The notes beneath the pieces were generated by a model. It worked only from the letters and a program-made list of their open reading frames with translations. It did not search any database and was not told where the DNA came from. A stretch of DNA of 55,831 bases, taken from a virus (lineage: Duplodnaviria; Caudoviricetes). Within the stretch, counting starts at the first letter, position 1, and the number at the start of each line of letters is the position of its first letter. A program made the position numbers and the translations under genes. The DNA is taken from IMG/VR virus record IMGVR_UViG_3300027336_000040, positions 1 to 55,831 of that record, one strand, 5' to 3'. This document shows positions 7,501-34,438 of this stretch, piece after piece.

Positions 7501-10500
7501 AGCGAGTTGATGAGCGCAGGCGCTTCGGCGACTTCGTGAACCGCGACGGCCAGGTCGTGCGCAACCCGAACGCAGTCCAGGTGGCACGCACTGACGAGAC
7601 CCCGGTCACCGATGACCAGGAGGGCATGTCGTTCGTTTCGGCCCCAAGCCAACCCAAGAAGAAGCCTGCTCCCGCGCCGGTAGAGGCACGCTCCGAGCCT
7701 CGTGAGCAGATGCGTCTGCCGTTCGGCCCCCGCCCCAACACCGACACTCCGGCGATGACCCGTCTGCGTAACCGCCTGGACGGCATCATCAAGAACGCCA
7801 GCAGCATCAAGTTCTTCCAGGACACCATCGTTGGCCTGGAGCAGCAGATCGCTGACATCGAGTCCAGGATCAAGTCCCTGGATCGCATCGAGGTGGACGG
7901 CAAGGTCTTCCGCGCCAGAAACGAGGAAGACGAGATGCCCGGCCTGTGGGGCATCTACGACATGAATGCCTACGATCGGTTCGCCGACGGCTTCATCGCT
8001 GACAAGCCCACCACAAAGCAGGAGCTGCTGGCTGCACGCCGCGCCCTGTCCGAGGAGCTGACCAAGGTGCGCGAGACCTCAATCGCCGCCAAGGCTGCGC
8101 TGTTCCGCCGCTCGATCAGCCGCATGGCTGACCAGATGATGAACGCCACGCGCTCGGCCATCAACGGCGGCATGCCCGAGGCTGACGCACGCAAGGTCTT
8201 CAACGACTACTATCAGGCGCTCTCGTTCCGAGAGACCAAGGCGCAGGACCTGGCTGAGGCCATGCCTGACCTGCCTGCCGCCGACGCTCAGTCCGACATG
8301 TTCGACGGCCTGCGTGTGGCGATGGGCTTCGTGGCTGACTTCCGCAACAAGCAGTCCACCGCCAGCGAGCTCAACGGCTACCTCGAGCAAGGCCTGCGTG
8401 ACGGCGACTTCAGCTACCAGGATGTGGTCGATGCCTTCCGCTCCTTCAAGCTGGACATTCCTCGCGGCGTCATGGACGTCAGCAGTCAGCTCGCCATTCG
8501 CAAGACGCTGGATGCTCACCTCAAGGAAGCTGGTCACTCGACCGCATCCCGTATGGAGTGGCTGGTCAGCATGGACAAAGTGCTGTCCGTCAAACCTGGG
8601 GCAAGGAGCGACTTCACCGCCGAAGAGCTGGCGCTGCATGACAACGTGTTCGCCAAGCGTGGTGAGCTGCGTTCCCGTCGCGCCGTCACAGAGCAGACCG
8701 TCGCCGCCAACGATCCTGATGACGCTTTCCCGAACCTGCTGTTCAACAACTACACGCTGGCCGAGGCGACCAACGACAAGACGCTGAACAAGTGGCTTCA
8801 GGGCAATGCCCGTGAGGCCTGGTTCCAGGACGTGGCGTTCGCCCTGCGCAGCCGCCCTGACCTGGCTGGCCAGGTGCTCAACAGCCTGGGTGATGACCGC
8901 GCACCTTTCGATGCTTGGGTGCAGCAGAAGAAGGACGCCATCGCCAAAGAGGCGACGATCCTAGCCAAGGCCCCGGCCTTCGCCGAGCTGCGCAACATGG
9001 ACTATGCGCAGACGATCCTGACCTCTCAGCCCGTCACGGCAAGCGACATCAATGCTGGCGCAGAAGATACCCGCCCAGATGATCTGGAGCGGCTCTACGC
9101 CACGGTCGCCAACTCCGAGCTCAACGACCTTCCATCCGTGCTTGATGCCGTCGCCAAGGTGCGCTCAATGCTCATGGCCGGAATCGACATGGAGACCGGC
9201 GAGATCTTCCAGAGCCAGTCGGCTGCCGAAGCTGCTGCCGCCGAATACATCGACAGCGTCTACATGAACGCCATGATGGTCGAGCCGCCGCGCTCAAACA
9301 TCGGCGCTCGATTCGAGGGTGACATCGGGTTTGGCATGACTGTCGAGCAGGCTGGCGAGCGCGACATCGGTCTGCCTCAGCAAACCTTCGACACAGACGA
9401 ATCCCTGAGCGACCTGATCTCCGCTGGTCTGGTGTCTGAAACCGACGTCGAGGGCCTGCTCGGTGAGCAGCAAGCCACCGACGAGGAGGCTGACGTCGAG
9501 GCCGAGAACGCTGGCGAGCAGACTGACATCGCCGCAGAGCGCGCTGATCGCAGCCCCCGTCCAGTGAACGTCCCGACCTCACTGGTCGGCACTGACCAGT
9601 ACCGCTTCCGCAAGGGCTTCTTCAACGGCAACTTGGTACCGGCCGTGGTGTCCGAGCACCTGAACAAGATCGCCTCCCGCTGGGCTGGCGCTCCCAACAT
9701 GGTGATCGTGCCCAACGTGCAGAGCCTGCCCGAAGAGCTGCGCGAGAAGGTCATGGCCAAGCTTGGCAGCAACATGTTCGCCAAGGGCCTGTACTACAAC
9801 GGCGACGTCTACGTCTTCACCGACCACGCCGAATCCCTGGCTGATGCCGAGTTCACCCTGTTCCATGAGGTGCAGGGTCACTTCGGTATGCGTGCCTTCC
9901 TCGGCGCTGACTTCGATGCGTACCTGGACCGCCTGTACAAGACCAACCCAGACATCCGTCGTGCTGCCGATCAGCGCATGGCCGAAGACCCGATGGGTCC
10001 GCTCGAGGCCGTGGACGAGGTCCTGTCCGACATGCAGGTCGATGGCGGCAACCAGGGGATGTTCCAAGCCTACGTCGGCAAGGTGATCGCTGGCCTGCGC
10101 AAGATCGGCATGGAGCGCGTGGCCAACTGGATCGCCAGCCAGGGCAACTTCGAGGTGGCCTACCTGCTGCGCGGCGCAAAGGATGCTGTCCGCCGTGGTG
10201 ACCGTCCGTCCATCGGCGCACCTGATGACATGCGTCTGGCAGCAACACGCACCCCATACGAGCTGTTCTCCGCCAAGGACGGCAAGACCGTTGCGTACGC
10301 CCGCTACAACCCAGTGCTCGACCGTTGGTCGATCTTCACCGCCAACGGCCAGGACATTCGCAAAGGGTTCAACACCGCCATCGAAGCTGACTTCGAGAAG
10401 GTGGTCACGACCATGCGCAAGATGGGCCGCGTTGAGCGCCGTCTGCGTTCCGGTGTGTACGTGGACAACAAGATCCCGTCCGACCTGGCCAAGATTCCAG

Positions 10501-13268
10501 ACTTCCGCATCCTCTCTGAAGACATCAACTTCACCAGCGTCGAAGGCCTGAAGACTCTTGGTGCGTTGATCAAGCGCAACGGCGGCATCTTCTTCCAGAA
10601 CGAGTACATCCCCGTGTTTGAGGTGGTCAACCACCTGGAGCGCGAGGGCAGAATCTCTGAAGCGTTTGACGTGCGCGGCGACCTCGAGGGCCTGTACGAG
10701 CGCCGCACTGGAGCCAAGCTCGAGAAGTACCGCAAGCAGTACGAGAAGCCGCTGATGAAGCTGGTTGAGCAGCTCGGCAAAGAGGGTGGCAACACGACTC
10801 TGGCCGAGGCGTTCCCAAGCCTTGCGGCATCGTTCAAGGACAGCCGCCTGGGCAACCTCAACGTGATCGACGCCTACCTCGGCGCACGCCACGCAGCAGA
10901 GCGGAACAAGCAGATCGCCAAGATCAACCCGAATCAGCCTGATGGCGGCTCGGGCATCTTCACGGCTGATGCCGATCTGATCCTGAACACGCTGTCGCGC
11001 CAGTCGTATGGCAACACCCTGTCTGAGATGACGCACATCCTGCAAGAGATCTCGCAACTCAAGCTCTCTGAGATGTACGACTCGGGCATGATCGGCCGCG
11101 ACGAGCTCAAGGCCCGCAGCCAGTACAAGTACTACGTCAACTTGTCCGGCATCAACGAGAACATCGACCAGTTCGACAACCCGGTGATCCTGGCTGGCGG
11201 TCCCAAGTTCGGCACCCGCAAGGACCGCCGCGCAATGGGCCGTGGCGACGCAGCTTCCGACATCTTGATCCGCACCCTCCAGTCATTCGAGGCATCGGTC
11301 ATCCACGCCGAGAAGAACAAGGTCAAGCAGAAGGTGCTGGCCATGCTCGAGATCAACTACGACCCTGACTTCGTGGTGATCAACAAGCAGGCAACCGTGC
11401 GCAAGCTCGATGAGAACGGTCAGGTCACCGAAGCGACAGATGACCGCTACATCCAGAACCGCGACGTGATGGTCGTCCATGTGAAGGGCAAGCCCATCAC
11501 GATGGAGTTCAAGCAGAAAGGCCCTGGCACTTTCGGAGAGGCCATCAACGGGATGATCTGGCCACCGGAGGCGACCAACTGGTTCCAGCGATTCTCTGGC
11601 CGAGCCAACCAGCTCATGGGTCAGATGCTGACCACTTGGAACCCGGCCTGGACAGCAGTCAACTACATCCGCGACTTGCAGAGTCTGTACTTCAACGCCG
11701 TCACCGAGGGTCGCATCACCCGTGAGATGGCCAAGGAGATGGTCAAGCTGCAACCGCAGGCCATCAAGGCGGCTTTCCACGTTGCCACCGATGGCAAGCG
11801 CGGCCACTCGGCCAGCCAGGACATGCTCGATGCCTACATCGAGATGCGTGACTCCGGCGGCGCAACCAGCTTCCTGAACCTGCGCGGCCTGGAGAACCAG
11901 GTGCAGGAGCTCGAGAAGCTGATGAACCCTGCCAAGAAGGGTTCGGCCAAAGACGTTCTCCTGAAGGCGGCTGACCTGATCGAGTCCATCAACATTCCGA
12001 TGGAAATGGCTCCGCGTATCGCCGCCTTCAAGGTCATGCGCGACAACGGTTACAGCGCCGAAGAGGCAGCACGGTTCGCTGGCGACATCACTGTGAACTT
12101 CAATATGCGCGGCAGCTCGAAGTTCATGCGCAACATGTTCCTGTTCTTCAACCCTGCCGTGCAGGGTACGAACAAGATGTACCGCCTGGCCAAGGAGAAC
12201 CCGAAGACCATGACCAAGATCGCTCTTGGCATGGCGGCAGCAGGCTTCATCACCAACATCATCGCCCGCGCTCTTGGCGGTGAGGATGATGACGGCATCG
12301 ACAAGCTCGACAAGGTGCCAGTGTTCAAGCGTGCAACCTCGATCGTGATCTGGCCTGACATGCCTGGCGCAGCGATCCCGATCCCGTACGGCTGGAACGC
12401 CTTCTACGCTGCCGGTCACTTCATGGCCGACACCCTCTGGGCTGGCTCGCAGTCTGCGTCCACCACCGCCAAGCGGATTGTTGGCGCTGCCTTCGAGTCG
12501 TTCTCGCCCTTGGGTGGCGCAATGTTGGATGCGTCGTCTACCGGCGTCGGCGCTCTCAAGACGGTGACACCGACGGTGCTCTCGCCGCTGGTGGATCTGA
12601 TCCTCAACGAGAACCGCTTCGGCGCACCCATCTCCAAGGAGGCGTCCATGTTCGGCGGCGGCAAGCGTGCCGACTCGCACATGAACTTCGACTCAGCGAG
12701 CCCGATCTCGACTGCCGCATTCCGTGGCTTGAACAAGCTGACCGGCGGCGACAAGGTCAACGCTGGCGTGATCGACATCAACTCCGGCGCGTTCGACTAC
12801 CTGGTCAGCGGCTACTTGCCAGGCCTTGCTGCGGAGACCTACAAATTCGCCTCGTGGACGGTGCGCAAGGCTCAGGGCTACGACACCAAGGACGCCGCTC
12901 TGCCGATCATCGACCGCCTGACCGCCAAGATTCCCGAGGGCTACAACTTCGGGATGCTGCGCAGGGCTGAGACGTTCATCAAGACCAAGGTGGACGACTA
13001 CGAGGTCAACCCCGGCAACCGTGAAGCGATCCTCAAGGAGTACCCGAACCTGGGCGCTGCCAAGTCGATCATCGGCGCGGTGGACTATCAGGTCGGCCAG
13101 CTCCGTCAGGCGCGCAATCAGCTCGAAGCGGCCGATATGCCTGAAGAGAAGAAGGTGGAGATGTACAACCTGAGCCGCCAGCGCGAGAAGGAGATCGTGG
13201 CCAAGGCTGTGCAGCTCGTTCTTCAGACCAATCCGCAGATGCGCAAGGTCCTGCTGGCCAACGATTGA
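4524..13268 (+). CDS. Giant internal virion polyvalent protein (two zincin-like HExxH regions, C-terminal LPD38-like domain)
   Basis: 2914 aa; LGHEVYH and LFHEVQGH motifs; C-terminal NYIRDLQ...ITVNFNMRG...FFNPAVQG...IPIPYG...NENRFGAPI resembles LPD38. Confidence 0.75.
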   Translation: MSSPLINLSDDSIFNSSSSGRGARRGIQTPQDPATKPRVNLSDDSLFYKGKEEASQDTLSDRYRAMYGYDKQEEPVQPKRGITNVLSDLGTAVFEGAKNTGRAIGATSNTITGDLADVEGYSAAQRAAAPNSPQAKRDLLDEIERRKQADPDPSVVSAVRNVGSAMLDNPEGAAQFVAEQAPNTVVSLGAGVAGAKAGALAAPFLGPLAPAGPVVGFLGGMFLGNFALETGNKAMEKARDGFTEADRSEALQEGAVKGGVITAVDAVTLGAGGKLAKTLGKPAIEAGARAEARVLADAGVDMASRASIEKALADPAIRVAAKAAGQSAAKAASTTGSKAAAAGTGLALETVGEGAGEYLGELAATGKADVYDAVLEAAAGLTQSAPETAYNLRNAAGNDLDVKGIQRSGVQATPPESRGITPPGQDQGKPLDQEVDERISSEERPPMSWMEVNETLQSEPALMALLLQDATTPEQREMVERAIARSEVGDQVQQALADPELLERTRIGLNSDVGQSFIGDLQASLPMYANEMPPSGMFKVPSPDLQRQQQLDEMTASPEYQEQLAEEAERVRVEREASQMQVRKPVAADAPQDAQSAESGVDVASMTTPDGTVVPLDDGNRSGYEAYFAGRGAEINGLTNPAVRQSAMQNVMQEMTKVGFTPEESREILNREEPSAPVTGREGTFENLSQTMSREFGEPIENFRQTKAPKYFTRIGSLFGVNIVAYNYTGKNPAVRKKAGRYIAGTNGKGTVLLNLTTADSAALFVLGHEVYHDLERRFPQQAQQLALEIKSYLSSSAQQRYKQFYEGKNQAQKTDSEIAADVMGTMFTDRKFWEQLGQRNPSLLDRVLSVLSTIIDSFRANADSSRQQIGKEIAQFEKVRDMMAEFASQGVEQTAQARGRAQPAAAPAQVSDMDEMPGKAEDDVKALDRVMKLLKDGNLPAAARTFKEAGLYAKGFGSFTEIQRMATQPAQSAPVAEPAPTKEPAVKTLDGKRVDERRRFGDFVNRDGQVVRNPNAVQVARTDETPVTDDQEGMSFVSAPSQPKKKPAPAPVEARSEPREQMRLPFGPRPNTDTPAMTRLRNRLDGIIKNASSIKFFQDTIVGLEQQIADIESRIKSLDRIEVDGKVFRARNEEDEMPGLWGIYDMNAYDRFADGFIADKPTTKQELLAARRALSEELTKVRETSIAAKAALFRRSISRMADQMMNATRSAINGGMPEADARKVFNDYYQALSFRETKAQDLAEAMPDLPAADAQSDMFDGLRVAMGFVADFRNKQSTASELNGYLEQGLRDGDFSYQDVVDAFRSFKLDIPRGVMDVSSQLAIRKTLDAHLKEAGHSTASRMEWLVSMDKVLSVKPGARSDFTAEELALHDNVFAKRGELRSRRAVTEQTVAANDPDDAFPNLLFNNYTLAEATNDKTLNKWLQGNAREAWFQDVAFALRSRPDLAGQVLNSLGDDRAPFDAWVQQKKDAIAKEATILAKAPAFAELRNMDYAQTILTSQPVTASDINAGAEDTRPDDLERLYATVANSELNDLPSVLDAVAKVRSMLMAGIDMETGEIFQSQSAAEAAAAEYIDSVYMNAMMVEPPRSNIGARFEGDIGFGMTVEQAGERDIGLPQQTFDTDESLSDLISAGLVSETDVEGLLGEQQATDEEADVEAENAGEQTDIAAERADRSPRPVNVPTSLVGTDQYRFRKGFFNGNLVPAVVSEHLNKIASRWAGAPNMVIVPNVQSLPEELREKVMAKLGSNMFAKGLYYNGDVYVFTDHAESLADAEFTLFHEVQGHFGMRAFLGADFDAYLDRLYKTNPDIRRAADQRMAEDPMGPLEAVDEVLSDMQVDGGNQGMFQAYVGKVIAGLRKIGMERVANWIASQGNFEVAYLLRGAKDAVRRGDRPSIGAPDDMRLAATRTPYELFSAKDGKTVAYARYNPVLDRWSIFTANGQDIRKGFNTAIEADFEKVVTTMRKMGRVERRLRSGVYVDNKIPSDLAKIPDFRILSEDINFTSVEGLKTLGALIKRNGGIFFQNEYIPVFEVVNHLEREGRISEAFDVRGDLEGLYERRTGAKLEKYRKQYEKPLMKLVEQLGKEGGNTTLAEAFPSLAASFKDSRLGNLNVIDAYLGARHAAERNKQIAKINPNQPDGGSGIFTADADLILNTLSRQSYGNTLSEMTHILQEISQLKLSEMYDSGMIGRDELKARSQYKYYVNLSGINENIDQFDNPVILAGGPKFGTRKDRRAMGRGDAASDILIRTLQSFEASVIHAEKNKVKQKVLAMLEINYDPDFVVINKQATVRKLDENGQVTEATDDRYIQNRDVMVVHVKGKPITMEFKQKGPGTFGEAINGMIWPPEATNWFQRFSGRANQLMGQMLTTWNPAWTAVNYIRDLQSLYFNAVTEGRITREMAKEMVKLQPQAIKAAFHVATDGKRGHSASQDMLDAYIEMRDSGGATSFLNLRGLENQVQELEKLMNPAKKGSAKDVLLKAADLIESINIPMEMAPRIAAFKVMRDNGYSAEEAARFAGDITVNFNMRGSSKFMRNMFLFFNPAVQGTNKMYRLAKENPKTMTKIALGMAAAGFITNIIARALGGEDDDGIDKLDKVPVFKRATSIVIWPDMPGAAIPIPYGWNAFYAAGHFMADTLWAGSQSASTTAKRIVGAAFESFSPLGGAMLDASSTGVGALKTVTPTVLSPLVDLILNENRFGAPISKEASMFGGGKRADSHMNFDSASPISTAAFRGLNKLTGGDKVNAGVIDINSGAFDYLVSGYLPGLAAETYKFASWTVRKAQGYDTKDAALPIIDRLTAKIPEGYNFGMLRRAETFIKTKVDDYEVNPGNREAILKEYPNLGAAKSIIGAVDYQVGQLRQARNQLEAADMPEEKKVEMYNLSRQREKEIVAKAVQLVLQTNPQMRKVLLAND

Positions 13269-24811: not shown

Positions 24812-24858
24812 AGCGTTGAGGCATGAGCCTCCACCCAAATGCGGTGAGCTGCAACATA

Positions 24859-24890
24859 GGCCCCTGGCATTGCGTCCAGGGGCTTTTCAT
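24859..24890 (+). terminator. Intrinsic terminator of the replication operon
   Basis: GCCCCTGG-loop-CCAGGGGC-TTTT. Confidence 0.75.
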
Positions 24891-24929: not shown

Positions 24930-24959
24930 AAAAAAAAGAAATGGGGGCATAGCCCCCAC
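24930..24959 (-). terminator. Intrinsic terminator of the early operon
   Basis: GTGGGGG-CTATG-CCCCCAT then TTCTTTTTTTT on the minus strand. Confidence 0.75.
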
Positions 24960-24962
24960 TCT

Positions 24963-25994: not shown

Positions 25995-26984
25995 TTAGTT
26001 GATGAGGCTGGGGGCGATGGAGTCGGAAGCGAACAAGTCGGCGATCCACTCGGCTGCGGTCTCGGGGAAGTCCTCGACCAGGTCCTCGACGTCATCGACG
26101 TCGTCGTACCAGTACGACAGCAGAGCTGCCGCCTTGTGCGGTGCGTCGAACACCCACTGCTCGACACCCTCTACGCCGCGACGCGACCATTGGTTGTGTG
26201 CTGCGCGAACGTACGGGCTGATCTGTGATGCGGTGAACGTCTGCTTCGGCAGGCCCCTGTGCGAGGACTTGGTGTCCTTGCTATCCGGGATGTACGAACC
26301 CTTGGCCTCGGTCGTGCCGGTGCGCCAGGTGCTGTAGTAGTCCTCGTAGTCGTCGTCCTGGAAGCGGCTGCGGTATCCGCCGTAGCCTGAGTACATGTTG
26401 GTGTAGCCGCCGCCTTGCGTGCCGGTGAACTTGTGGTACGACCAGGCGTAGGTGTTGGACAGCCAGGCGTTCTGGTAGTTGACGCCAGCTTGCGCGTTGA
26501 TCACCACGACGGCTCCGTCTGCACGCACCAGTGCGAACTTGTTGCTGCGGCCGATGAGCTCGCCCACGAACTTCTGCCAGTCGACGTCGGTCAGCAGCTC
26601 GGGGTTGCCGATGAGCGCCGGACGGATGAAGTTCTGGATGAAGTGCCAGGTGTCGGACTTGGCTTTGTCTGCGGCGTTGCCGGTGGACAGGATGCCGTTG
26701 TGCGCCAGCCAGACGTCGTCCGTCACCTTGTAGGGATGGCAGTTGTCGAAGTCGATGTCGCCGTGCGTCTGCATGCGTGCGTGCCACACGCAGTTCTTGC
26801 CTTCGGCGTGCTTGCGGTAGAAGTCGACGAACTCCTGCGCGTTGGCGGGCAGGCACTTGAAGATGTGCATCTTGTCGCCGTCGGCATACATGACGCCCAG
26901 GCCGTCCTGGTTCTTGTTGTAGACGTCGGCGAGAAACTCATCGCTGAATGTGGATTGGGTGGTTTGTTGTACGAGAAGACACAT
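25995..26984 (-). CDS. Class II (Ntn) glutamine amidotransferase
   Basis: N-terminal Met-Cys, NQDGLG, HARMQTHG, NCHPY, HNGIL, SDT. Confidence 0.9.
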   Translation of the reverse strand: MCLLVQQTTQSTFSDEFLADVYNKNQDGLGVMYADGDKMHIFKCLPANAQEFVDFYRKHAEGKNCVWHARMQTHGDIDFDNCHPYKVTDDVWLAHNGILSTGNAADKAKSDTWHFIQNFIRPALIGNPELLTDVDWQKFVGELIGRSNKFALVRADGAVVVINAQAGVNYQNAWLSNTYAWSYHKFTGTQGGGYTNMYSGYGGYRSRFQDDDYEDYYSTWRTGTTEAKGSYIPDSKDTKSSHRGLPKQTFTASQISPYVRAAHNQWSRRGVEGVEQWVFDAPHKAAALLSYWYDDVDDVEDLVEDFPETAAEWIADLFASDSIAPSLIN

Positions 26985-27012: not shown

Positions 27013-28350
27013 TCAGGCGGTTTCGAGACGGTTCTCGAGATACGGGACGAGCATGTCGGTGTCGCCGGACTCGTCGGAGCGGATGAACTCGAGAAACTTG
27101 TCGGCCTTGAGTTCGCGGATCGACGTGGTTGAGCGACCGCAGAACTCGACGAGAGCGTTCGAGAACTGGATCGCAGCCATGACCGATTCGTACTTGAGGC
27201 TGCCCTTGAAGATGCGGAACTCGATGGTCTTGCGCGGCGTGATGTTCACTGCCTCGTACCGGTCATCGGACTGTGCTGATCGGCCGATCTTCTTGCTCTT
27301 GATGCGGCAATAGCCCTCGGCGTACCGACGTGCGACAGCGCGGACCAGGTCCTCGTTGTCCGGGTCGTTGATGAACGACACGATCTTGGCGATCTGCAAC
27401 TTGGACAACCCATCCTTGCTGACGTGAACGTGCAGTCCGCATGTCGTGGTGTTGTGCGAGCGCAGGCTGCGGACGGCGTTCTTGTCCTTGAGCCAGGCCC
27501 AAAGATCACGGTGCTTGTCCAGGCCCATCGGCTGGCTGATGATCTCGAAGCCGTTGCTCAGAGAGCCGTCGTTCTCGAAGAACACCTTGGCTCCGAACTG
27601 CTCGTCGTTGATCAGCTTGTGTAGCGCCAGAGCCTTCTCGCCACGCTCGTTATCCCGCACCTCCACCTCGAGCTCGACGCCGAGGTAGCGCTTCTTCATC
27701 TTGGTCCAGTCGCTGATCTGCGGACGCTGCGATCCCTTGCTGCTGTGGTAGTTGCCGATGACACGAGCTGACGGGCTGTAGTCGACGTGGTGGTACTCGT
27801 CGTCGTCGTCGTCGAACTGGAAGTCGTCGTCGTCCTCGTGGATCACGCAGCGGTTGCCGTATTGGTCGAGCGCGTCGCGTGAGCTGTCCGAGTAGACGTA
27901 CATGTCGTAGTAATCGGACCAGCGGTAGCTGTCGTCGATGCAGCTGCGGCAGATCTGCGCGTCCTCGTTGTTGTAGTAGGACCGCACCTCACGCACCAGC
28001 TCCCACTCACCGCAGTCATCGCAGCGGGTGATGATGTCCCTGTCTTTCAGGAGGTCGATGCAATCGTCTGAGTCGTCGGCGCTGTCGTACCGGCTGATCC
28101 AGTCGCTGAAGTCGCCGACTTCCCAGGCGGAGTAGCGATCAAGCCAGAGCTTGAGGTGCAGCATCATGCAGCCCTCTTCCTCCCCCATGATGGTGAGAAC
28201 AATGGACTTGATGCCGACGAACTTGCAGATGTCGAAGAGCTGGTCGACGTCACCTCCTTCGAGTGCTCGCTTGGCAACTTGATGTGCGAACTTTGACTTG
28301 GCCGTGTAGGTTTGTGTGGCCAGGCGTTCAAGGTATGGATAGTTCTTCAT
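27013..28350 (-). CDS. Putative amidoligase (COOH-NH2 ligase, glutamine-synthetase fold)
   Basis: GVELEVE, DGSL..GFEIISQP, TCGLHVHV, TIEFRIFKG; N-terminal Cys pairs. Confidence 0.85.
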   Translation of the reverse strand: MKNYPYLERLATQTYTAKSKFAHQVAKRALEGGDVDQLFDICKFVGIKSIVLTIMGEEEGCMMLHLKLWLDRYSAWEVGDFSDWISRYDSADDSDDCIDLLKDRDIITRCDDCGEWELVREVRSYYNNEDAQICRSCIDDSYRWSDYYDMYVYSDSSRDALDQYGNRCVIHEDDDDFQFDDDDDEYHHVDYSPSARVIGNYHSSKGSQRPQISDWTKMKKRYLGVELEVEVRDNERGEKALALHKLINDEQFGAKVFFENDGSLSNGFEIISQPMGLDKHRDLWAWLKDKNAVRSLRSHNTTTCGLHVHVSKDGLSKLQIAKIVSFINDPDNEDLVRAVARRYAEGYCRIKSKKIGRSAQSDDRYEAVNITPRKTIEFRIFKGSLKYESVMAAIQFSNALVEFCGRSTTSIRELKADKFLEFIRSDESGDTDMLVPYLENRLETA

Positions 28351-28372
28351 AAACCTTCCGTGTTTGGACAAT

Positions 28373-28395
28373 AAAAAACCCGCCGATTGGCGGGT
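28373..28395 (-). terminator. Intrinsic terminator just upstream of the amidoligase
   Basis: ACCCGCC-AATC-GGCGGGT-TTTTT. Confidence 0.75.
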
Positions 28396-28436
28396 CACGA
28401 AATGTGCAAACAGTTCTACATACAAACAGCAAGAGG

Positions 28437-28465
28437 GGCTTCCCTCCTCCAACAGGAGGGAAGAC
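28437..28465. promoter_or_regulatory. GGCT-N21-AGAC hairpin element, copy 1
   Basis: CTTCCCTCCT-CCAAC-AGGAGGGAAG. Confidence 0.65.
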
Positions 28466-28476
28466 ACTCAGTTGAT

Positions 28477-28953
28477 TCAAGCAGGCACTGGAATCCTCCG
28501 GGCCTTCTTCATCCTGATCTGACTCCACACGTAGTCGAGTGCCGACTCAAGTTGATTGATCGTGCAGATGTCGAGCTGGGCGTCGTGAATTTCCATCGTC
28601 TGGTTGATTGCTGTCAGCTCAGGTCCTGACAGAACAAACTTGCCAACCTTGGACGAGCGCACGCCGACGCTGTACAGAGCGTCTTGGCCCGCCTTGATCT
28701 CGCTTCTGTAGTCCTCGCCCAGGCCTTTGATGGCTAGCGCTTCGGTGACGTTGAACGCATTGATGATGGCGTCCATGTCGTCCTTGTTGGCCTCGCCCTT
28801 GCGCAGAGAGTCAATGGCGATGTGGTTTCTGATCCTGGTGCGGGTGATGATTGATCCGTTCTCGACGTCGGCAGCCTTCTGCATTCCCGACTTGATCCAG
28901 CTCATGTTGTCCAGGCGCACGCCTTTTGGTTTGTACTTACTGCGTTTGCGCAC
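28477..28953 (-). CDS. Conserved hypothetical phage protein
   Basis: MRKRSKYKPK...HDAQL; GTG start inferred. Confidence 0.65.
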   Translation of the reverse strand: MRKRSKYKPKGVRLDNMSWIKSGMQKAADVENGSIITRTRIRNHIAIDSLRKGEANKDDMDAIINAFNVTEALAIKGLGEDYRSEIKAGQDALYSVGVRSSKVGKFVLSGPELTAINQTMEIHDAQLDICTINQLESALDYVWSQIRMKKARRIPVPA

Positions 28954-29104
28954 CACGGTTCTCCAGCACAATTTTCTCCAGCTTCTCCACTGCAACGCAC
29001 AGGTCCTCATGCAGGTAGTCGGGCAGCGGTGTCTTGGTGCTGAATGCCCACGACTCCAGCGCGGACAGCAGCTTGATCAGTTTGATCGCGTCTTCTTTGC
29101 TCAT
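28937..29104 (-). CDS. Hypothetical protein
   Basis: MSKEDAIKLIKLLSALESW. Confidence 0.6.
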   Translation of the reverse strand: MSKEDAIKLIKLLSALESWAFSTKTPLPDYLHEDLCVAVEKLEKIVLENRGAQTQ

Positions 29105-29178
29105 TTGTTTCTTCTCCAGAAAGCCCACACGTAGACAAGCGTGTGAGCGGTGCCGATGAGGTACATCCACCAAGTCAT
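29101..29178 (-). CDS. 25-aa hydrophobic peptide (absent from ORF track)
   Basis: MTWWMYLIGTAHTLVYVWAFWRRNK; ATGA overlaps at both ends. Confidence 0.5.
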   Translation of the reverse strand: MTWWMYLIGTAHTLVYVWAFWRRNK

Positions 29179-29342
29179 AAGCAACTCCTCAACGTCATCA
29201 GGCCAAGCATCAGGACAATGAATCCCAACAGAGCCCACACCAATTGCCCGTCAGCAGGGGTTGGCTTTTCTTCCTCCAGTTGCTTTCGCACCGGGCATTC
29301 CCTGCCTTGTCGGCAGTTGCCGTATTCGTCACAGCAGTTCAT
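29175..29342 (-). CDS. Small Cys-rich membrane-anchored protein
   Basis: MNCCDEYGNCRQGRECPVR plus C-terminal TM helix. Confidence 0.6.
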   Translation of the reverse strand: MNCCDEYGNCRQGRECPVRKQLEEEKPTPADGQLVWALLGFIVLMLGLMTLRSCL

Positions 29343-29431
29343 TTGATGATCCTCATAAACGCGCCGCACCGAGAGCACTTGTAAAGTGGCTGACCCTCCA
29401 CGGGTTCCCAGCGGTGTTGGCATTGACTCAT
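29339..29431 (-). CDS. 30-aa Zn-ribbon peptide
   Basis: CQHRW...CSRCG; ATGA overlaps. Confidence 0.5.
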   Translation of the reverse strand: MSQCQHRWEPVEGQPLYKCSRCGAFMRIIK

Positions 29432-29820
29432 GGTGTTACTCCGAAAAGCGCGGACGTCAGCGCGTCGCGTCTTGGTTTTTTGTTTGCGTGATACGCCGCT
29501 CTGCGTCTTGCCTTGATGTCTTCCCATTCACCCGACGCACGAGCGTTGCGCCTGTACCTTCGAGTGCGGCCGATGTCGTTTAGCAGCTTGGGAATCTTTG
29601 GCTTGAAGCCAGCTGGCGCAGGTCCAGGGTGGAAGACAGAAACCATCGGTCCACCGTTTGGATGCACTTCCTTGTGGTGAAGATGAATCTCGTCTGCGGT
29701 ACGCAGGTCTGTGAACCATCGAGAGACAGTGGCCAGACTGAGACCTGTCCTGGCCCTGACATCAGCGTTGCTGCCTGGCAGTGCGGCCAGGACGATCGCC
29801 CTGTACGCACGCTTGCTCAC
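29428..29820 (-). CDS. Winged-HTH protein
   Basis: SNADVRARTGLSLATVSRWFTDL. Confidence 0.55.
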   Translation of the reverse strand: MSKRAYRAIVLAALPGSNADVRARTGLSLATVSRWFTDLRTADEIHLHHKEVHPNGGPMVSVFHPGPAPAGFKPKIPKLLNDIGRTRRYRRNARASGEWEDIKARRRAAYHANKKPRRDALTSALFGVTP

Positions 29821-29999
29821 TTGCCGTCCTCCCGGTCGATCGGGATGTATTGGCAGTTCTCGTCGAGCGAGTTGACGCACTCATGCTGCGGCGTGCGCTC
29901 ACCCCAGGTCTGATCTGGGTGCTTGGCCCAGCGCTGGCATCGCTTGCAGTTCTGATCAGGCAGCGATGCGTGGCATCTGGCGTAGTCATAAGGAAGCAT
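29817..29999 (-). CDS. Small Cys-rich protein
   Basis: MLPYDYARC...CKRCQR...C..C. Confidence 0.55.
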   Translation of the reverse strand: MLPYDYARCHASLPDQNCKRCQRWAKHPDQTWGERTPQHECVNSLDENCQYIPIDREDGK

Positions 30000-30171
30000 T
30001 GCCTGTTCCCCTTTCGATTGGTTTGGCGAGCAACCACCTGTCACCGAGCAAGCGAATCTGACGCACCCATTGACGCTGGTATGAGCGGTTGTGATTCGCC
30101 GGGATGTGAGGGTTGTTGAATAGTTGGCGCACATGGCGCAAAGCGTTTGTCTTCATTCGATTATCTCTTGC

Positions 30172-30187
30172 GTAAATATTGAAATGG
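30172..30187. promoter_or_regulatory. Post-terminator motif, copy 2 (GTAAATATTGAAATGG)
   Basis: Same spacing from terminator as copies 1 and 3. Confidence 0.55.
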
Positions 30188-30200
30188 GAGTGCTTCGCTT

Positions 30201-30225
30201 AAATGAAAACGCCCCCGAAGGGGCG
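30201..30225 (-). terminator. Intrinsic terminator
   Basis: CGCCCC-TTCG-GGGGCG-TTTTCATTT on the minus strand. Confidence 0.75.
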
Positions 30226-30245
30226 CTGTCATGGATTGTGTATGG

Positions 30246-30395
30246 TCATGTGAACCATAAGTAGACGCCGTGGATGATGCCGATCGGGAAGAAGATCGCC
30301 CCGGCCAACAGCAGCAGCCATGAGGCTGTGCTGAAGCAGAAGAAGATGTGCGTGAACCAGGCGCAGATCGCCGAGATGCCGATGACCCAGCCCAT
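30246..30395 (-). CDS. 49-aa two-TM membrane protein (absent from ORF track)
   Basis: MGWVIGISAICAWFTHIFFCFSTASWLLLLAGAIFFPIGIIHGVYLWFT. Confidence 0.65.
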   Translation of the reverse strand: MGWVIGISAICAWFTHIFFCFSTASWLLLLAGAIFFPIGIIHGVYLWFT

Positions 30396-30397
30396 GA

Positions 30398-30802
30398 TCA
30401 CCACCAAGAGTCGTACACGACTGCCTTGCCTTCGGCGATGGCTGCTCGTGCTTTGGTAACGAAGTCCCGGACCTCTTGGGTGGACTCTGGAGTCATCTCA
30501 TCCTCGTCACCCCAGAAGAATCCAGACCTGGGCTTCAGGTTTCCCGCCTCATCCCATAGTCTGTCCAGGTCGGCTGGCATGAGCCTGAGCGTGGTGCAGT
30601 TGAACGACTCAGAGCCGCCGCCCTTCTTGTAGTACAGGTCGGCCATCCACTGGTGCAGGTTGTTGAACTTGCGCCAGTAGGCGAAGTCTGTGTCGACGCC
30701 TTCTCTTGCCTTGCCATCCTCGAATACCTGGTCGTTAAGATCGACCTGCTTGTCACCGAGCCGATTGGCTGGGATCGTGTAAGCGTACATATCAAGACCC
30801 AT
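30398..30802 (-). CDS. Conserved phage protein (MGLDMY...YWRK...SWW family)
   Basis: MGLDMYAY, YWRKFNNLHQWM, FNC, GFFWG, YDSWW. Confidence 0.75.
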   Translation of the reverse strand: MGLDMYAYTIPANRLGDKQVDLNDQVFEDGKAREGVDTDFAYWRKFNNLHQWMADLYYKKGGGSESFNCTTLRLMPADLDRLWDEAGNLKPRSGFFWGDEDEMTPESTQEVRDFVTKARAAIAEGKAVVYDSWW

Positions 30803-31040
30803 GTGTTTCTCCTCGTTGTTCAATGTGGCGTTGTGCAGCCTTTAGCTTGAAGCCCAGGCTGCGATTCTCTTTGGTGAGCTGCTTGACCTCTTCCTCCAGG
30901 GAGATCAGACGCAGTCGCATGTACTCGAGCTGCATGGCCTGAGCGTGGATCGTCTCAGTCTTCATGCGCTCGGTAGTCTTGGCCGCTTTCTCGGCCGCTG
31001 TTGCTGGCGCTGGGGCCAGGCCTCTGGCGAGCTCGTTCAT
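30792..31040 (-). CDS. Coiled-coil hypothetical protein
   Basis: Heptad pattern; ATGA overlap. Confidence 0.55.
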   Translation of the reverse strand: MNELARGLAPAPATAAEKAAKTTERMKTETIHAQAMQLEYMRLRLISLEEEVKQLTKENRSLGFKLKAAQRHIEQRGETHGS

Positions 31041-31255
31041 CCGCCCACCTCGCAGACGCCGCACCAGAACCAGGTGTTGTGGTTGCGTTCGGTGATCATC
31101 TGGTTGGCATCGGCGCCGCAGTCGCTGCACGGCGGATGGGTTCGGCCCTTGTACTCAGGGCTGGTTGACCTGGTAACCGGCGTGCTGATCAACGGTCGGC
31201 CAAACATGTTGCTGGGCGTCGGCGTTCCCAGCCTAAAGTCCAGTCGGACGAGCAT
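31037..31255 (-). CDS. Small Zn-ribbon protein
   Basis: CSDCG...WCGVCEVGG. Confidence 0.5.
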   Translation of the reverse strand: MLVRLDFRLGTPTPSNMFGRPLISTPVTRSTSPEYKGRTHPPCSDCGADANQMITERNHNTWFWCGVCEVGG

Positions 31256-31496
31256 TCGGTCCCTCCAGTAGTTCGATTGCTTCGTTGAGGAATTGGCGAG
31301 CAGCCTCGATGTCCTCGCCTTCATACGGCGTGAACTCGGCGTTGGCCAGGAAGTCGCCGAGCAGGAACTCGGCTTGACGAATCTTGTCGAGCGCCTTCTC
31401 GCACGCGGCGGTTAGGTCAGTCGTGCGCTGCATGAAGTACAGGAACGGCTTGTCCTGTTCGGCGGTCAGCTCGTAGAGCTTCTTCATTCGACCCAT
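31233..31496 (-). CDS. Hypothetical protein
   Basis: AAGGA RBS; MGRMKKLYEL. Confidence 0.55.
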   Translation of the reverse strand: MGRMKKLYELTAEQDKPFLYFMQRTTDLTAACEKALDKIRQAEFLLGDFLANAEFTPYEGEDIEAARQFLNEAIELLEGPNARPTGL

Positions 31497-31734
31497 TGGT
31501 TTTTCCTTTCTGCTTCTCCATGTACTTGGCCAAGGCCTTTCTCCCCTTGTCGGTGAGCCTGTCCTTGGCGATGAGGTTGGTTGATGTTTTGACTGTCTTG
31601 CCTGCGCTGAGCAGTCCGCGCCGACGCAGAGACCAGTAGGTGTTCCAAGACCCCGGCTTGTCGTTGTACATCTTGAATCCCCACCCATCGGCGAACATCT
31701 TGAGCATGAAGGCCTGCTGTGGGGACAGGCTCAT
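31417..31734 (-). CDS. Winged-helix-like hypothetical protein
   Basis: LSPQQ...SLRRRGLL...LTDKGRKAL. Confidence 0.55.
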   Translation of the reverse strand: MSLSPQQAFMLKMFADGWGFKMYNDKPGSWNTYWSLRRRGLLSAGKTVKTSTNLIAKDRLTDKGRKALAKYMEKQKGKTNGSNEEALRADRRTGQAVPVLHAAHD

Positions 31735-31736
31735 GG

Positions 31737-32105
31737 TCAATACTCCGAGGTCAGCATCAAGACGTCTCCCTGAAGGAAGAAGCGCCAGTTGCCTGTCGGG
31801 CAGTCGGTTGCGCTGATGACCTTGGCCCACAGCTCGGAGTCATCGCCGTCAGTCACGACAATGTCGGCTGACTGGTTGGTGTGGACGCCCAGCTCGATGA
31901 CCAGGAAACTGCGGAAGTGCGCCAGGCTGCGCAGCTCGGTGCCGATGATGTCGAGGAACCAGTAGGCTCCGCCGCCTGCGTTCTCGGCGAAGTACTTCAC
32001 GCCGTCGGTGTATTTGAGCCAGCGGTACAGCGGGTTGTAGTGGTACTTCTCAGTGCCGATGAACTGTTCGAGCTCTTGCTGAAGGGTGATGGTGTCGGTT
32101 GTCAT
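31737..32105 (-). CDS. DUF6876-like protein
   Basis: LEQFIGTEKYH...YTDGVKYFAE...YWFLDII...LMLTSEY. Confidence 0.7.
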   Translation of the reverse strand: MTTDTITLQQELEQFIGTEKYHYNPLYRWLKYTDGVKYFAENAGGGAYWFLDIIGTELRSLAHFRSFLVIELGVHTNQSADIVVTDGDDSELWAKVISATDCPTGNWRFFLQGDVLMLTSEY

Positions 32106-32112
32106 GTCAGCC

Positions 32113-32132
32113 TCGTGTAAATATCGAATTGG
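32113..32132. promoter_or_regulatory. Post-terminator motif, copy 3 (TCGTGTAAATATCGAATTGG)
   Basis: 15 bp identical to 24899-24913; overlaps the RBS of the DUF6876-like gene. Confidence 0.6.
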
Positions 32133-32146
32133 GAGTAGCTCCCGAG

Positions 32147-32178
32147 AAAAGAAAAGGGGGTGACCGTAGCCACCCCCT
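32147..32178 (-). terminator. Intrinsic terminator
   Basis: AGGGGGTGGC-TACG-GTCACCCCCT-TTTCTTTT. Confidence 0.75.
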
Positions 32179-32194
32179 GTTCCGGTCAACCTGC

Positions 32195-32638
32195 TCAGTA
32201 CGGAGCTGGTTCTGCGTGCGCTGCGGGCTGCATGCCCACCACACGGCGCTCGACCGGCATCTGCTTGGCCAGTCGTTCCAGGCACGTTGCCATCAGCATC
32301 TTCACTGCGGCGTCGACGTCGTCCTGAGACTTGCTGTCGTCCAGCATGGCTCGCTGGATGGCTTGAACCTGCTCGAGGATCTTGACCTGGGTCATCGCCT
32401 CTCGAATGCCAGCGCCGGGCAATTCCTTGCCGCACCAGCCCAGGCCAACGCCGAGCATGTACGCAGCACCGAGAACCTTCTCGGGAGCGGGAGCGGTCTC
32501 CTGCTTGGCGATCTCAGCGGCGATCAACGAGCTCGCTTCCTCACGGGTAGCCGGAGCAACCATGTTGCGGCGAGCAAACCACTCCACTTGCTTGGGAGTG
32601 GGACCGTTGGCGTTCAGGGATTTGGTGGTGAAAAACAT
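32195..32638 (-). CDS. Early hypothetical protein
   Basis: AAGGA RBS; PTPKQ...TREEASSLI motif; phage-like codon usage. Confidence 0.7.
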   Translation of the reverse strand: MFFTTKSLNANGPTPKQVEWFARRNMVAPATREEASSLIAAEIAKQETAPAPEKVLGAAYMLGVGLGWCGKELPGAGIREAMTQVKILEQVQAIQRAMLDDSKSQDDVDAAVKMLMATCLERLAKQMPVERRVVGMQPAAHAEPAPY

Positions 32639-32693
32639 GAGAGTGTCCTTTCAAGACAAACAAGGGTTAATTAAACAAACACAAGAGAAAGCT

Positions 32694-32722
32694 GGCTGGC
32701 TCTCTCCAAAGGAGAGCCAGAC
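32694..32722. promoter_or_regulatory. GGCT-N21-AGAC hairpin element, copy 2
   Basis: CTGGCTCTCT-CCAAA-GGAGAGCCAG. Confidence 0.65.
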
Positions 32723-32732
32723 AGATTTAGGC

Positions 32733-32906
32733 TCAGCGGGAGACGTCATCCATCCTGGCGACAGCCCAGCAAGCGATGGCCAAGCACAGGAAGATGGGAA
32801 GGCAGAACAGCTCAAACCTCAGGTCATAGGTCTTGACTACCAGTAGACCGAGATACATGGCTGGAACGGTTAATACGGTGAAGAGGGTTGCGATGGTTGC
32901 GTACAT
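32733..32906 (-). CDS. 57-aa two-TM membrane protein (absent from ORF track)
   Basis: GGAG RBS; MYATIATLFTVLTVPAMYLGLLVV...FCLPIFLCLAIACWAVAR. Confidence 0.6.
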   Translation of the reverse strand: MYATIATLFTVLTVPAMYLGLLVVKTYDLRFELFCLPIFLCLAIACWAVARMDDVSR

Positions 32907-32909
32907 TTA

Positions 32910-33047
32910 TTAACTCCAGGAGGTTGTGAAGGGGTTGTAACCAGCTTTGAGGAGCTGATTGAAGCTGATGAGAGGCATGGGTTTGAGACCTCGGCTACGG
33001 CAATAGGAAACGTAGTCGAGATAGGTTTTTGCAATGGGGGGTTTCAT
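32910..33047 (-). CDS. 45-aa protein, first ORF of the leftward early region (absent from ORF track)
   Basis: MKPPIAKTYLDYVSYCRSRGLKPMPLISFNQLLKAGYNPFTTSWS. Confidence 0.5.
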   Translation of the reverse strand: MKPPIAKTYLDYVSYCRSRGLKPMPLISFNQLLKAGYNPFTTSWS

Positions 33048-33162
33048 GGCGATTTGCTTTCTAAATCAAGGGGTTGGGGTTATTGGTAGGAGGAATGTCA
33101 TAGATCAACCCACACGGGAGCTGGATTCCATACATTTTCATCACCAATAACCCAAGGAAGGT

Positions 33163-33191
33163 GGCTACCTTTCTCCCAAAGAAAGGTAGAC
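33163..33191. promoter_or_regulatory. GGCT-N21-AGAC hairpin element, copy 3
   Basis: CTACCTTTCT-CCCAA-AGAAAGGTAG. Confidence 0.65.
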
Positions 33192-33549
33192 AACAGACGA
33201 TTAAGTACACAGACAGTAGATAACCCATTGATTCACATAGGGTTACTACTGATTACCGGTCTGTACAGGCCGGAAGGTGGTGGAGGGAGGGGGCCTATGG
33301 CCAGCCGGAGCGGAGTACGGGGGGTATGAGGACTCCAGCACGTATAGGATCACTCGTGCGAGACCCGCCTTTCACAACCCCAAGCCCTAATCCCAGCCGA
33401 AGGCATAGCCAGGACGCTTATTTCAGGCCTTGGCTGCGTTTTCTTGGGGTGGGTGGTACCTACCCCCCAGTGGACCCAGGAAAACGACCCTGGGGGGCCT
33501 AAAGGAACCCCGGTCAGAATCCTTTTTGGAACATCAACCGGAGAAACCC

Positions 33550-33826: not shown

Positions 33827-33985
33827 TGGATACCGGTATCCAGCCATAGGTAACCAGATTAAGGTGGTTACTACCGGTATCCTTATACCGCTATGCGGAT
33901 AACCAATGATTAGAAAACCAGAATGCTTACGCATTCTTTTAGTTATTTTCTAAGGGATACCGGTATATAAGGATACCGGTATCCT
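33827..33985. repeat. Cluster of GGATACCGGTATCC palindromes in an AT-rich tract (candidate origin or packaging control)
   Basis: Perfect 16-mers at 33827-33842 and 33970-33985; partial copies at 33872 and 33954. Confidence 0.7.
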
Positions 33986-34267: not shown

Positions 34268-34308
34268 TGCCGCCATGCAACTCGCTTCCCTTCCACGACC
34301 GACTTTCT

Positions 34309-34386: not shown

Positions 34387-34438
34387 ATTCAAACTCTTGG
34401 CGTAATACGACACCCTCGTCGTATTGAACCCCCTGCCT

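Follow-up and report, generated by a model that had tools for sequence, protein, structure and literature searches.

What do three hairpins of one fixed geometry do at the heads of gene blocks in the virus record IMGVR_UViG_3300027336_000040? The record, 55,831 bases long and 99% complete according to CheckV, was analyzed as a whole and is called the window below. An original prediction made from its letters had described, on the + strand, three elements composed of GG, a 10-position stem that begins with CT and ends with AG, a 5-nucleotide (nt) loop that starts with CC, and AC. It had offered two functions for them, hairpin or cruciform promoters like those of phage N4, or antitermination signals. 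Geometry, flanks and loops read as described at all three places, which confirms the observation. As to function, our preferred answer, to which we give a probability of roughly one in three (0.35), is that the hairpins act in cis as leader RNA signals of processive antitermination, similar to nut or rrn sites and outside those families. The three hairpins are the following.

28437 to 28465, minus strand: hairpin 1 (copy 1), a perfect stem of 10 base pairs (bp) with loop CCAAC, starting 12 nt past the stop codon of an open reading frame (ORF) of 177 amino acids (aa).

32694 to 32722, minus strand: hairpin 2 (copy 2), nine Watson-Crick pairs and a closing T.G pair with loop CCAAA, starting 11 nt past the stop codon of a 57-aa membrane ORF.

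33163 to 33191, minus strand: hairpin 3 (copy 3), a perfect 10-bp stem with loop CCCAA, the first element of the leftward operon.

All three hairpins belong to a single leftward operon that runs from approximately 33.2 kb to 25.0 kb. The next leftward start codons are 87, 56 and 116 nt from hairpins 1, 2 and 3, respectively, in agreement with the 56 to 116 nt given originally; the word "early" applied to these genes in the original prediction is an assumption. The bare sequence pattern is not rare: GGCT-N21-AGAC occurs five times in the window against 2.56 expected, at least five matches were reached in 13 of 100 shuffles, and three of the five matches are the hairpins. The structure is another matter. 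These are the only three sites in the 55.8-kb window that combine a 10-bp stem, with at most one G.T pair, and a 5-nt loop; block shuffles (n = 200) gave a mean of 0.425 such hairpins and reached three in 2 of 200 cases. The three are all in the forward orientation, with none in reverse and none in a reversed-pattern control.

Scanning viral contigs for the exact pattern gave 22 loci, of which seven hold a perfect copy of hairpin 2 or 3; the remaining 15 pair at only 5 to 8 of the 10 positions and represent chance matches. A search with the terminase added 49 loci of 53 to 95% identity. Across these terminase-related loci the order of genes in the operon is kept, namely the 45-aa ORF, the 57-aa ORF, a 147-aa gene, a DUF6876 gene, others, an amidoligase gene and a GATase gene. 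All 17 distinct leaders of the 147-aa gene (from 23 loci) have a hairpin, including that of L054, for which the automatic picker took another stem and the element was identified in a separate listing. The amidoligase gene is likewise preceded by a hairpin in all 10 distinct leaders. At the start of the operon, the hairpins of relatives follow a conserved promoter-like block by 10 to 17 nt, and hairpins 1 and 2 and their orthologues begin 9 to 15 nt past the stop codon of the upstream gene.

The stem sequences are wholly different between lineages while pairing is kept. In nine close sequences, 94.4% of the cells pair and five of the 10 pairs change on both sides; in nine distant sequences, the figures are 95.1% and eight of nine, but these counts are inflated because the sequences were chosen with a hairpin finder, a bias of which the position-based counts are free. 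For both the close and the distant set, the observed score was reached in none of 500 shuffles, and slid controls were far lower. Hairpin 3 scored 59.1 bits with the R1 covariance model. The covariance model of the distant set placed three elements on one strand in each of the complete genomes G002 and G003 and in the G004 contig of a metagenome-assembled genome, two in G005 (91% complete) and none in G006, where elements are visible by eye. Nearly all covariance-model matches in distant relatives are on the gene-sense strand. Relatives have stems of 9 to 12 bp and loops of 3 to 8 nt, and the loops are more alike within one phage than between phages. The structural claim of the original prediction, which was open to refutation by a lack of conservation or covariation, stood up in the related phages, in which hairpins occupy the three corresponding places and their stems carry compensatory changes. 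The element family is real, conserved and covarying, and it is fixed in count and positions.

On the gene-sense strand, each hairpin is followed by CC and a C/U-rich tail, often (C)GCTCTT or GCTTT and then a G/T-rich run, with U-rich stretches that begin 3 to 8 nt past the stem. The string CTCTTG(C)TGTTTGT, noticed earlier as shared by two copies, was found downstream of copies 1 and 2 and belongs to this tail. Several gene-strand loops in distant relatives read UUCG or UACG closed by U.G, as do the loops of the phage's own terminators. As a separate observation, the leaders of the 147-aa gene in L036, L037 and L073 contain a second small hairpin with a UUCG loop, approximately 25 nt past the main one. 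The features of the operon that surround the hairpins and tails are listed here.

33192 to 33262, minus strand: promoter- or operator-like block upstream of hairpin 3, kept in relatives, with TCAATGGGTTATCTAC at 33216-33231 and TGTG..CTTAAT approximately 10 nt before the stem.

32639 to 32693, minus strand: C/U-rich tail and 5′ untranslated region behind hairpin 2, holding CTCTTGTGTTTGT (32675-32687) as well as a Shine-Dalgarno sequence ahead of the ATG at 32638.

32155 to 32178, minus strand: T1, an internal intrinsic terminator after the 147-aa gene, 35 nt before the start codon at 32120.

30208 to 30227, minus strand: T2, an internal intrinsic terminator from the terminator scan.

28397 to 28436, minus strand: spacer between hairpin 1 and T3, containing CTCTTGCTGTTTGT at 28422-28435.

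28371 to 28396, minus strand: T3, a canonical intrinsic terminator with an 8-bp G+C-rich stem and a T run, approximately 26 nt before the amidoligase ATG at 28350.

24939 to 24961, minus strand: T4, the terminator that ends the leftward operon, facing the terminator (24858-24885) of a rightward operon that converges on it.

The remark that copy 1 lies shortly before a strong terminator was borne out, with a measured gap of 42 nt to T3, and the arrangement is conserved. All 10 distinct amidoligase leaders consist of the hairpin, a spacer of 37 to 64 nt, a canonical terminator and then 23 to 30 nt (67 in L054) up to the point where the extracted leader stops, at the start codon. L063, the only related lineage in which the amidoligase leader has no hairpin, has no terminator there either. 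Within the spacer of hairpin 1 we also noticed an ATG followed directly by a stop codon (ATGTAG at 28405-28412, minus strand; ATGTAA in L029 and L033, AAGTAG in L028), which has no evident ribosome-binding site and may be due to chance.

How, then, are the genes behind these terminators expressed? Between 24 and 36 kb, the search for sigma-70-like sites yielded a single one, on the other strand, and none on the gene strand of the operon or at 33192-33262. The block upstream of hairpin 3 was also compared by eye with sigma-70, sigma-54 and extracytoplasmic-function (ECF) promoters, and no convincing fit emerged. The presence of three internal terminators and the lack of a sigma-70-like site on the gene strand in that region argue that the downstream genes need read-through. 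The positions of T1 and T3 lead to the same conclusion, as they are only 35 and approximately 26 nt from the next start codon, too close to leave room for a promoter. A near-consensus TATAAT ahead of the rightward tRNA and late genes indicates that the phage evidently uses the host polymerase.

Evidence at the RNA level comes from contigs of four riverine RNA-labelled runs (X19, X21, X23 and X24) of the eight that contain the stretch. Contigs of the X19 and X21 RNA libraries bridge hairpins 1 and 2, which indicates that these hairpins are not efficient stops. One X19 contig ends at 33161, just downstream of hairpin 3 and 4 nt past its stem, one X24 contig has its end at 28427, 12 nt beyond the stem of hairpin 1, and two contigs stop at 33038, within a run of six G. 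For 33162-33284 there is no cover among the pieces listed, and the depth table gives none in X24 and some in X19, X21 and X23; contig depths cannot rank genes, and neither the gaps nor the depths support a conclusion. RNA-library contigs also end in Illumina adapter at 34300, just before tRNA-Pro, at 28514 and at 29298.

These features can be brought together in a model of processive antitermination. The leftward operon would be transcribed by the host RNA polymerase, and each hairpin with its C/U-rich 3′ tail would act as a leader RNA. Once transcribed, the nascent hairpin and tail might alter the elongation complex, either alone, with host factors of the Nus type or with a putative phage protein, and the altered complex would read through T1, T2 and above all T3, 42 nt past hairpin 1. 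The conserved coupling of hairpin and terminator, the polarity of the tail, the single orientation, the fixed positions and the covariation fit antitermination best. The first element counts in its favor as well, since a place approximately 10 nt downstream of a promoter-like block is where a loading site is expected, and so do the UUCG or UACG gene-strand loops of distant relatives and the contigs that bridge hairpins 1 and 2. Of the two functions originally offered, antitermination therefore became the leading explanation as the best fit to the anatomy; we infer both that RNA rather than DNA is the active form and that antitermination is the effect.

Comparison with known systems shows where this proposal is at home and where it is not. 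Like nut and rrn sites, the elements combine an RNA hairpin with a linear pyrimidine-rich element, located downstream of a promoter and upstream of terminators. BoxB of nut sites is short, with a defined loop. As presented in the available part of PMC6614797, boxA of nut sites lies 5′ of the short boxB hairpin, unlike here, where the linear element is 3′ of the hairpin, the stem measures 9 to 12 bp and the loops vary. The order in rrn leaders, according to the same part of that source (PMC6614797), is hairpin (boxB), boxA and GU-rich boxC, and the elements described here resemble them in having a hairpin, a pyrimidine-rich segment ((C)GCUCUU-like in our case) and a GU- or U-rich run.

A search of the window with 4227 Rfam models left only tRNAs above the gathering cut-offs; the best match below threshold was Trp_leader (copy 1 with T3), at 25.6 against 41 bits. 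The put sites of phage HK022 offer a second comparison. They are antiterminator RNAs that need no dedicated factor, consist of two stem-loops within approximately 65 to 70 nt and occur once per operon; they are structured in the nascent RNA of a temperate phage just downstream of an early promoter, and their stems covary between sites. Our elements share with put the cis-acting structured nascent RNA downstream of a promoter, the temperate phage and the covarying stems. They differ from it in being a single hairpin with a linear tail, present three times in one operon. No second paired stem-loop adjoins the element in folds of 111 nt of the gene strand, and the next strong stem behind hairpin 1 is T3.

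Several points weigh against antitermination. The RNA evidence consists of contigs only, and the covariation counts are inflated, as said above. Among the proteins encoded in the window, we recognized no antiterminator of the N, Q or NusG-paralogue kind. In particular, no match to an N-like family was found near the hairpins, where a basic 45-aa ORF and a 150-aa ORF with an arginine-rich C terminus exist, and the product of the 147-aa gene, always behind hairpin 2, gave no informative fold match. An operon with three loading sites, of which two are separated by only 470 nt, differs from lambda and HK022. Compared by eye with the Escherichia coli boxA consensus UGCUCUUUA, which is bound by NusB:NusE, the tails agree at 5 to 7 of 9 positions in some members, and an A-rich half like that of the Sheuella amnicola rrn leader is missing from them. 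Among named genomes, only that of S. amnicola contains a fragment of a related terminase, and this bacterium may belong to the host lineage. In the group of L055, L060 and L068, the amidoligase gene is preceded by a hairpin with no canonical terminator after it.

The strand that folds belongs to the same side of the balance. The + strand folded as RNA is slightly more stable in 14 of 17 leader rows of the 147-aa gene, many of which share one hairpin, and an even-handed scan showed G.T and A.C departures on both strands. The single T.G pair that had been taken as a hint of template-strand folding therefore lost its meaning, as wobble pairs occur on both strands across the relatives. We discarded an apparent + strand bias as evidence of the folding strand: it arose from searching the + strand alone, the even-handed scan shows both, and the energy differences are small.

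Could the hairpins serve the fate of the mRNA instead? An endonuclease might cut the U-rich tail, leaving the hairpin to protect the upstream 3′ end, with hairpin 3 alternatively acting as a 5′-terminal stem-loop, and gene blocks would thereby acquire different half-lives. We regard this explanation as a real, if distinctly smaller, chance. It would account well for the location of hairpins 1 and 2 and their orthologues just past the upstream stop codons, and for that of hairpin 3 within approximately 10 nt of the likely transcript start. The tails hold GC followed by UUU, which resembles RNase E-type sites. Intercistronic stabilizer hairpins and the RNase III sites of T7 are similar in being hairpins of conserved structure between genes, just past stop codons. 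They differ from our elements, which have short perfect stems and a conserved tail, one at the start of the operon and one coupled to a terminator. RNase III needs stems longer than 9 to 12 bp, so those found here are too short for it. The two contig ends near hairpins 3 (33161) and 1 (28427) are in line with processing, but they are weak evidence, as other runs bridge the sites. Neither the coupling of hairpin 1 to a terminator in 10 of 10 leaders nor expression behind T1 and T3 is explained by stability alone.

The elements might also be pause sites or leaky terminators for the host RNA polymerase, that is, attenuators heading each gene block, and would then serve to adjust expression ratios or to keep transcription and translation coupled. 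The hairpins are G+C rich, a U-rich tract starts 3 to 8 nt past the stem, and the terminator scan flags alternative weaker stems with T-rich tails at copies 1 and 2; the Trp_leader match of copy 1 with T3, although below the cut-off, points the same way. However, the U-run that directly follows the G+C-rich stem of an intrinsic terminator is lacking: the tails begin with CC, unlike the phage's own true terminators, which have the U-run. The contigs that bridge copies 1 and 2 speak against stops as well. A trp-like switch, in which the 3′ arm of the hairpin would pair with the 5′ arm of the terminator, was rejected, as the predicted arm-pairing energies were -8.96 kcal/mol for arms of the same phage versus -9.39 for arms of different phages, with no sign of covariation. 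Pausing or attenuation is an unlikely account of these elements.

We consider it quite unlikely, too, that the hairpins form a shared operator through which an RNA-binding protein of the phage or host jointly controls translation or decay of the three gene blocks. Each genome does have three copies of the same module, all of them in leaders, the loops are more alike within a phage than between phages, and a conserved gene always adjoins hairpin 2. Nevertheless, the hairpins are 56 to 116 nt from the start codons and leave the ribosome-binding sites uncovered, and no RNA-binding domain was recognized in the operon proteins. Mimicry of a Shine-Dalgarno sequence by the purine arm of the stem was dropped as an idea, given the plain G-runs at that position in distant members.

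The weakest explanation, that hairpins extruded from the DNA are recognized by their structure as promoters of an injected or early uncharacterized polymerase, in the manner of the N4 virion RNA polymerase, found no support and is very unlikely. It drew on the kept structure with varying stem sequence, on the flanks and loop start that are fixed within the phage, on the single orientation, on the slightly higher stability of the + (template) strand folded as RNA in most distinct leaders, on the X19 contig that starts just downstream of hairpin 3 and on the presence of a giant virion protein. The likeness to N4, a podophage with a giant virion protein, extends to the three copies heading gene blocks. 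The candidate protein is the following.

4524 to 13268, plus strand: 2914-aa protein, whose last approximately 800 residues (LPD38 domain) are the only part with named relatives.

Neither this protein nor any other in the window gave an RNA polymerase signal in Pfam, PHROGs, PDB sequence searches, Atlas features or motif regular expressions. The expressions covered the T7-like motif B and DxDGD, all searches were at the sequence level, and every other ORF in the window is too small. At that level the giant protein was set aside as a polymerase candidate, with a small probability that its first 2000 residues hide a cryptic enzyme. Its C-terminal part is common to Stx-converting, Vibrio, Ralstonia and Burkholderia phages, and Stx phages are lambdoid and use the host polymerase. 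Co-occurrence with the protein, put forward originally as a check, failed in the L063 lineage, which has a 2915-aa homologue but whose 10 kb of sequence ahead of the terminase contain no hairpins. Other observations concerning this protein are the motifs HEVYH at residue 769 and HEVQGH near residue 1781, and Atlas features that resemble polyvalent (LPD-domain) phage proteins.

Geometry and location also speak against promoters. In the accessible portion of PMC4496689, N4 promoters have a GC-rich heptamer centered at -11, a 3-base loop with required bases and conserved sequence from -17 to +1, they require the virion polymerase, gyrase and SSB, and the stem of P2 is 7 bp long. The elements studied here have 10-bp stems and 5-nt loops, and the N4 promoter features given in that portion (PMC4496689) were not found. 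Transcription from copy 1 would run into a terminator after 42 nt, copy 3 is approximately 10 nt downstream of the conserved promoter-like block, and RNA contigs cross copies 1 and 2. That the hairpins are promoters or DNA loading sites for a polymerase or factor of a novel kind, hidden in a small operon protein or within residues 1 to 2000 of the 2914-aa protein, is hardly more credible. If true, transcription directed by hairpins in the style of N4 would also exist in a lineage of temperate podophages with an integrase.

What kind of phage carries these elements? The gene content includes an integrase, an ERF recombinase, a primase-helicase, a terminase, an SU10-type portal and adaptors, together with six tRNA genes, and the phage is a temperate podovirus-like element. 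The terminases of its nearest cultured phages share at most 46% identity with its own. ORFs run off both ends of the record (1-1401 and 53623-55830, both on the plus strand), and the ORF at the start has tail-fibre-like Pfam matches, so the record appears to be a permuted circular assembly cut within a tail-fibre-like gene. The operon genes closest to the hairpins are given below.

32910 to 33047, minus strand: first ORF behind hairpin 3, encoding a basic 45-aa protein with faint winged-helix-like Pfam matches below cut-off.

32195 to 32638, minus strand: the 147-aa gene, always behind hairpin 2, with a function not assigned by search or fold.

27013 to 28350 and 25995 to 26984, minus strand: Amidoligase_2 gene and GATase_4 gene, the block behind hairpin 1 and T3.

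Across its homologues, the 147-aa gene product has an invariant G-[KR]-[DE]-LPGAG-[VI]-RE...Q motif. Its model shows a five-helix fold with a mean predicted local distance difference test (pLDDT) score of 76.7. No identity as a known regulator could be assigned to it, as Foldseek found nothing in PDB at E ≤ 0.001 and the best VIA-align Z score, 6.0 on helical repeats, was uninformative. Sequence searches of PDB with three proteins of the operon yielded no match below E 0.09. Further along the operon, the 150-aa ORF at 29428-29880 (minus strand) has a faint helix-turn-helix match in addition to its arginine-rich C-terminal stretch, and its product could, judging from these signatures, bind nucleic acid. 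Next to it, a 30-aa ORF at 29339-29431 (minus strand) has a Cys...Cys-x2-Cys pattern with the look of a zinc ribbon. It lies within a stretch of 103 nt that is 84.6% identical at the DNA level to Phage DSL-LC05, an otherwise unrelated phage in which a 93-nt coding sequence at the corresponding place is labelled "DNA-directed RNA polymerase."

Other conserved structures occur outside the operon. The 1.1-kb gap that separates the leftward operon from the tRNA and terminase genes contains three to four occurrences of a 14-bp palindrome, GGATACCGGTATCC (33828-33985), and its near-copies, and relatives have other palindromes at this place; these palindromes are probably operators or an origin. Between tRNA-Pro and tRNA-Tyr, a hairpin formed by TAATACGAC and GTCGTATTG at 34403-34426 is kept with small changes in relatives.

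If the hairpins do act in antitermination, they would constitute a compact hairpin-plus-tail signal, absent from Rfam, that controls a terminator-gated operon. The lineage that carries it comprises widespread freshwater phages with no cultured member, in which the signal would work without a recognizable protein of the N, Q or NusG type. A new variant would thereby be added to the few known processive antitermination systems, as a simple, testable cassette in which a hairpin, a spacer and a terminator follow one another. Should the role of the hairpins turn out to be RNA stabilization, they would still represent a clean, covarying regulatory element at fixed positions that can be modelled and searched for in viral metagenomes.

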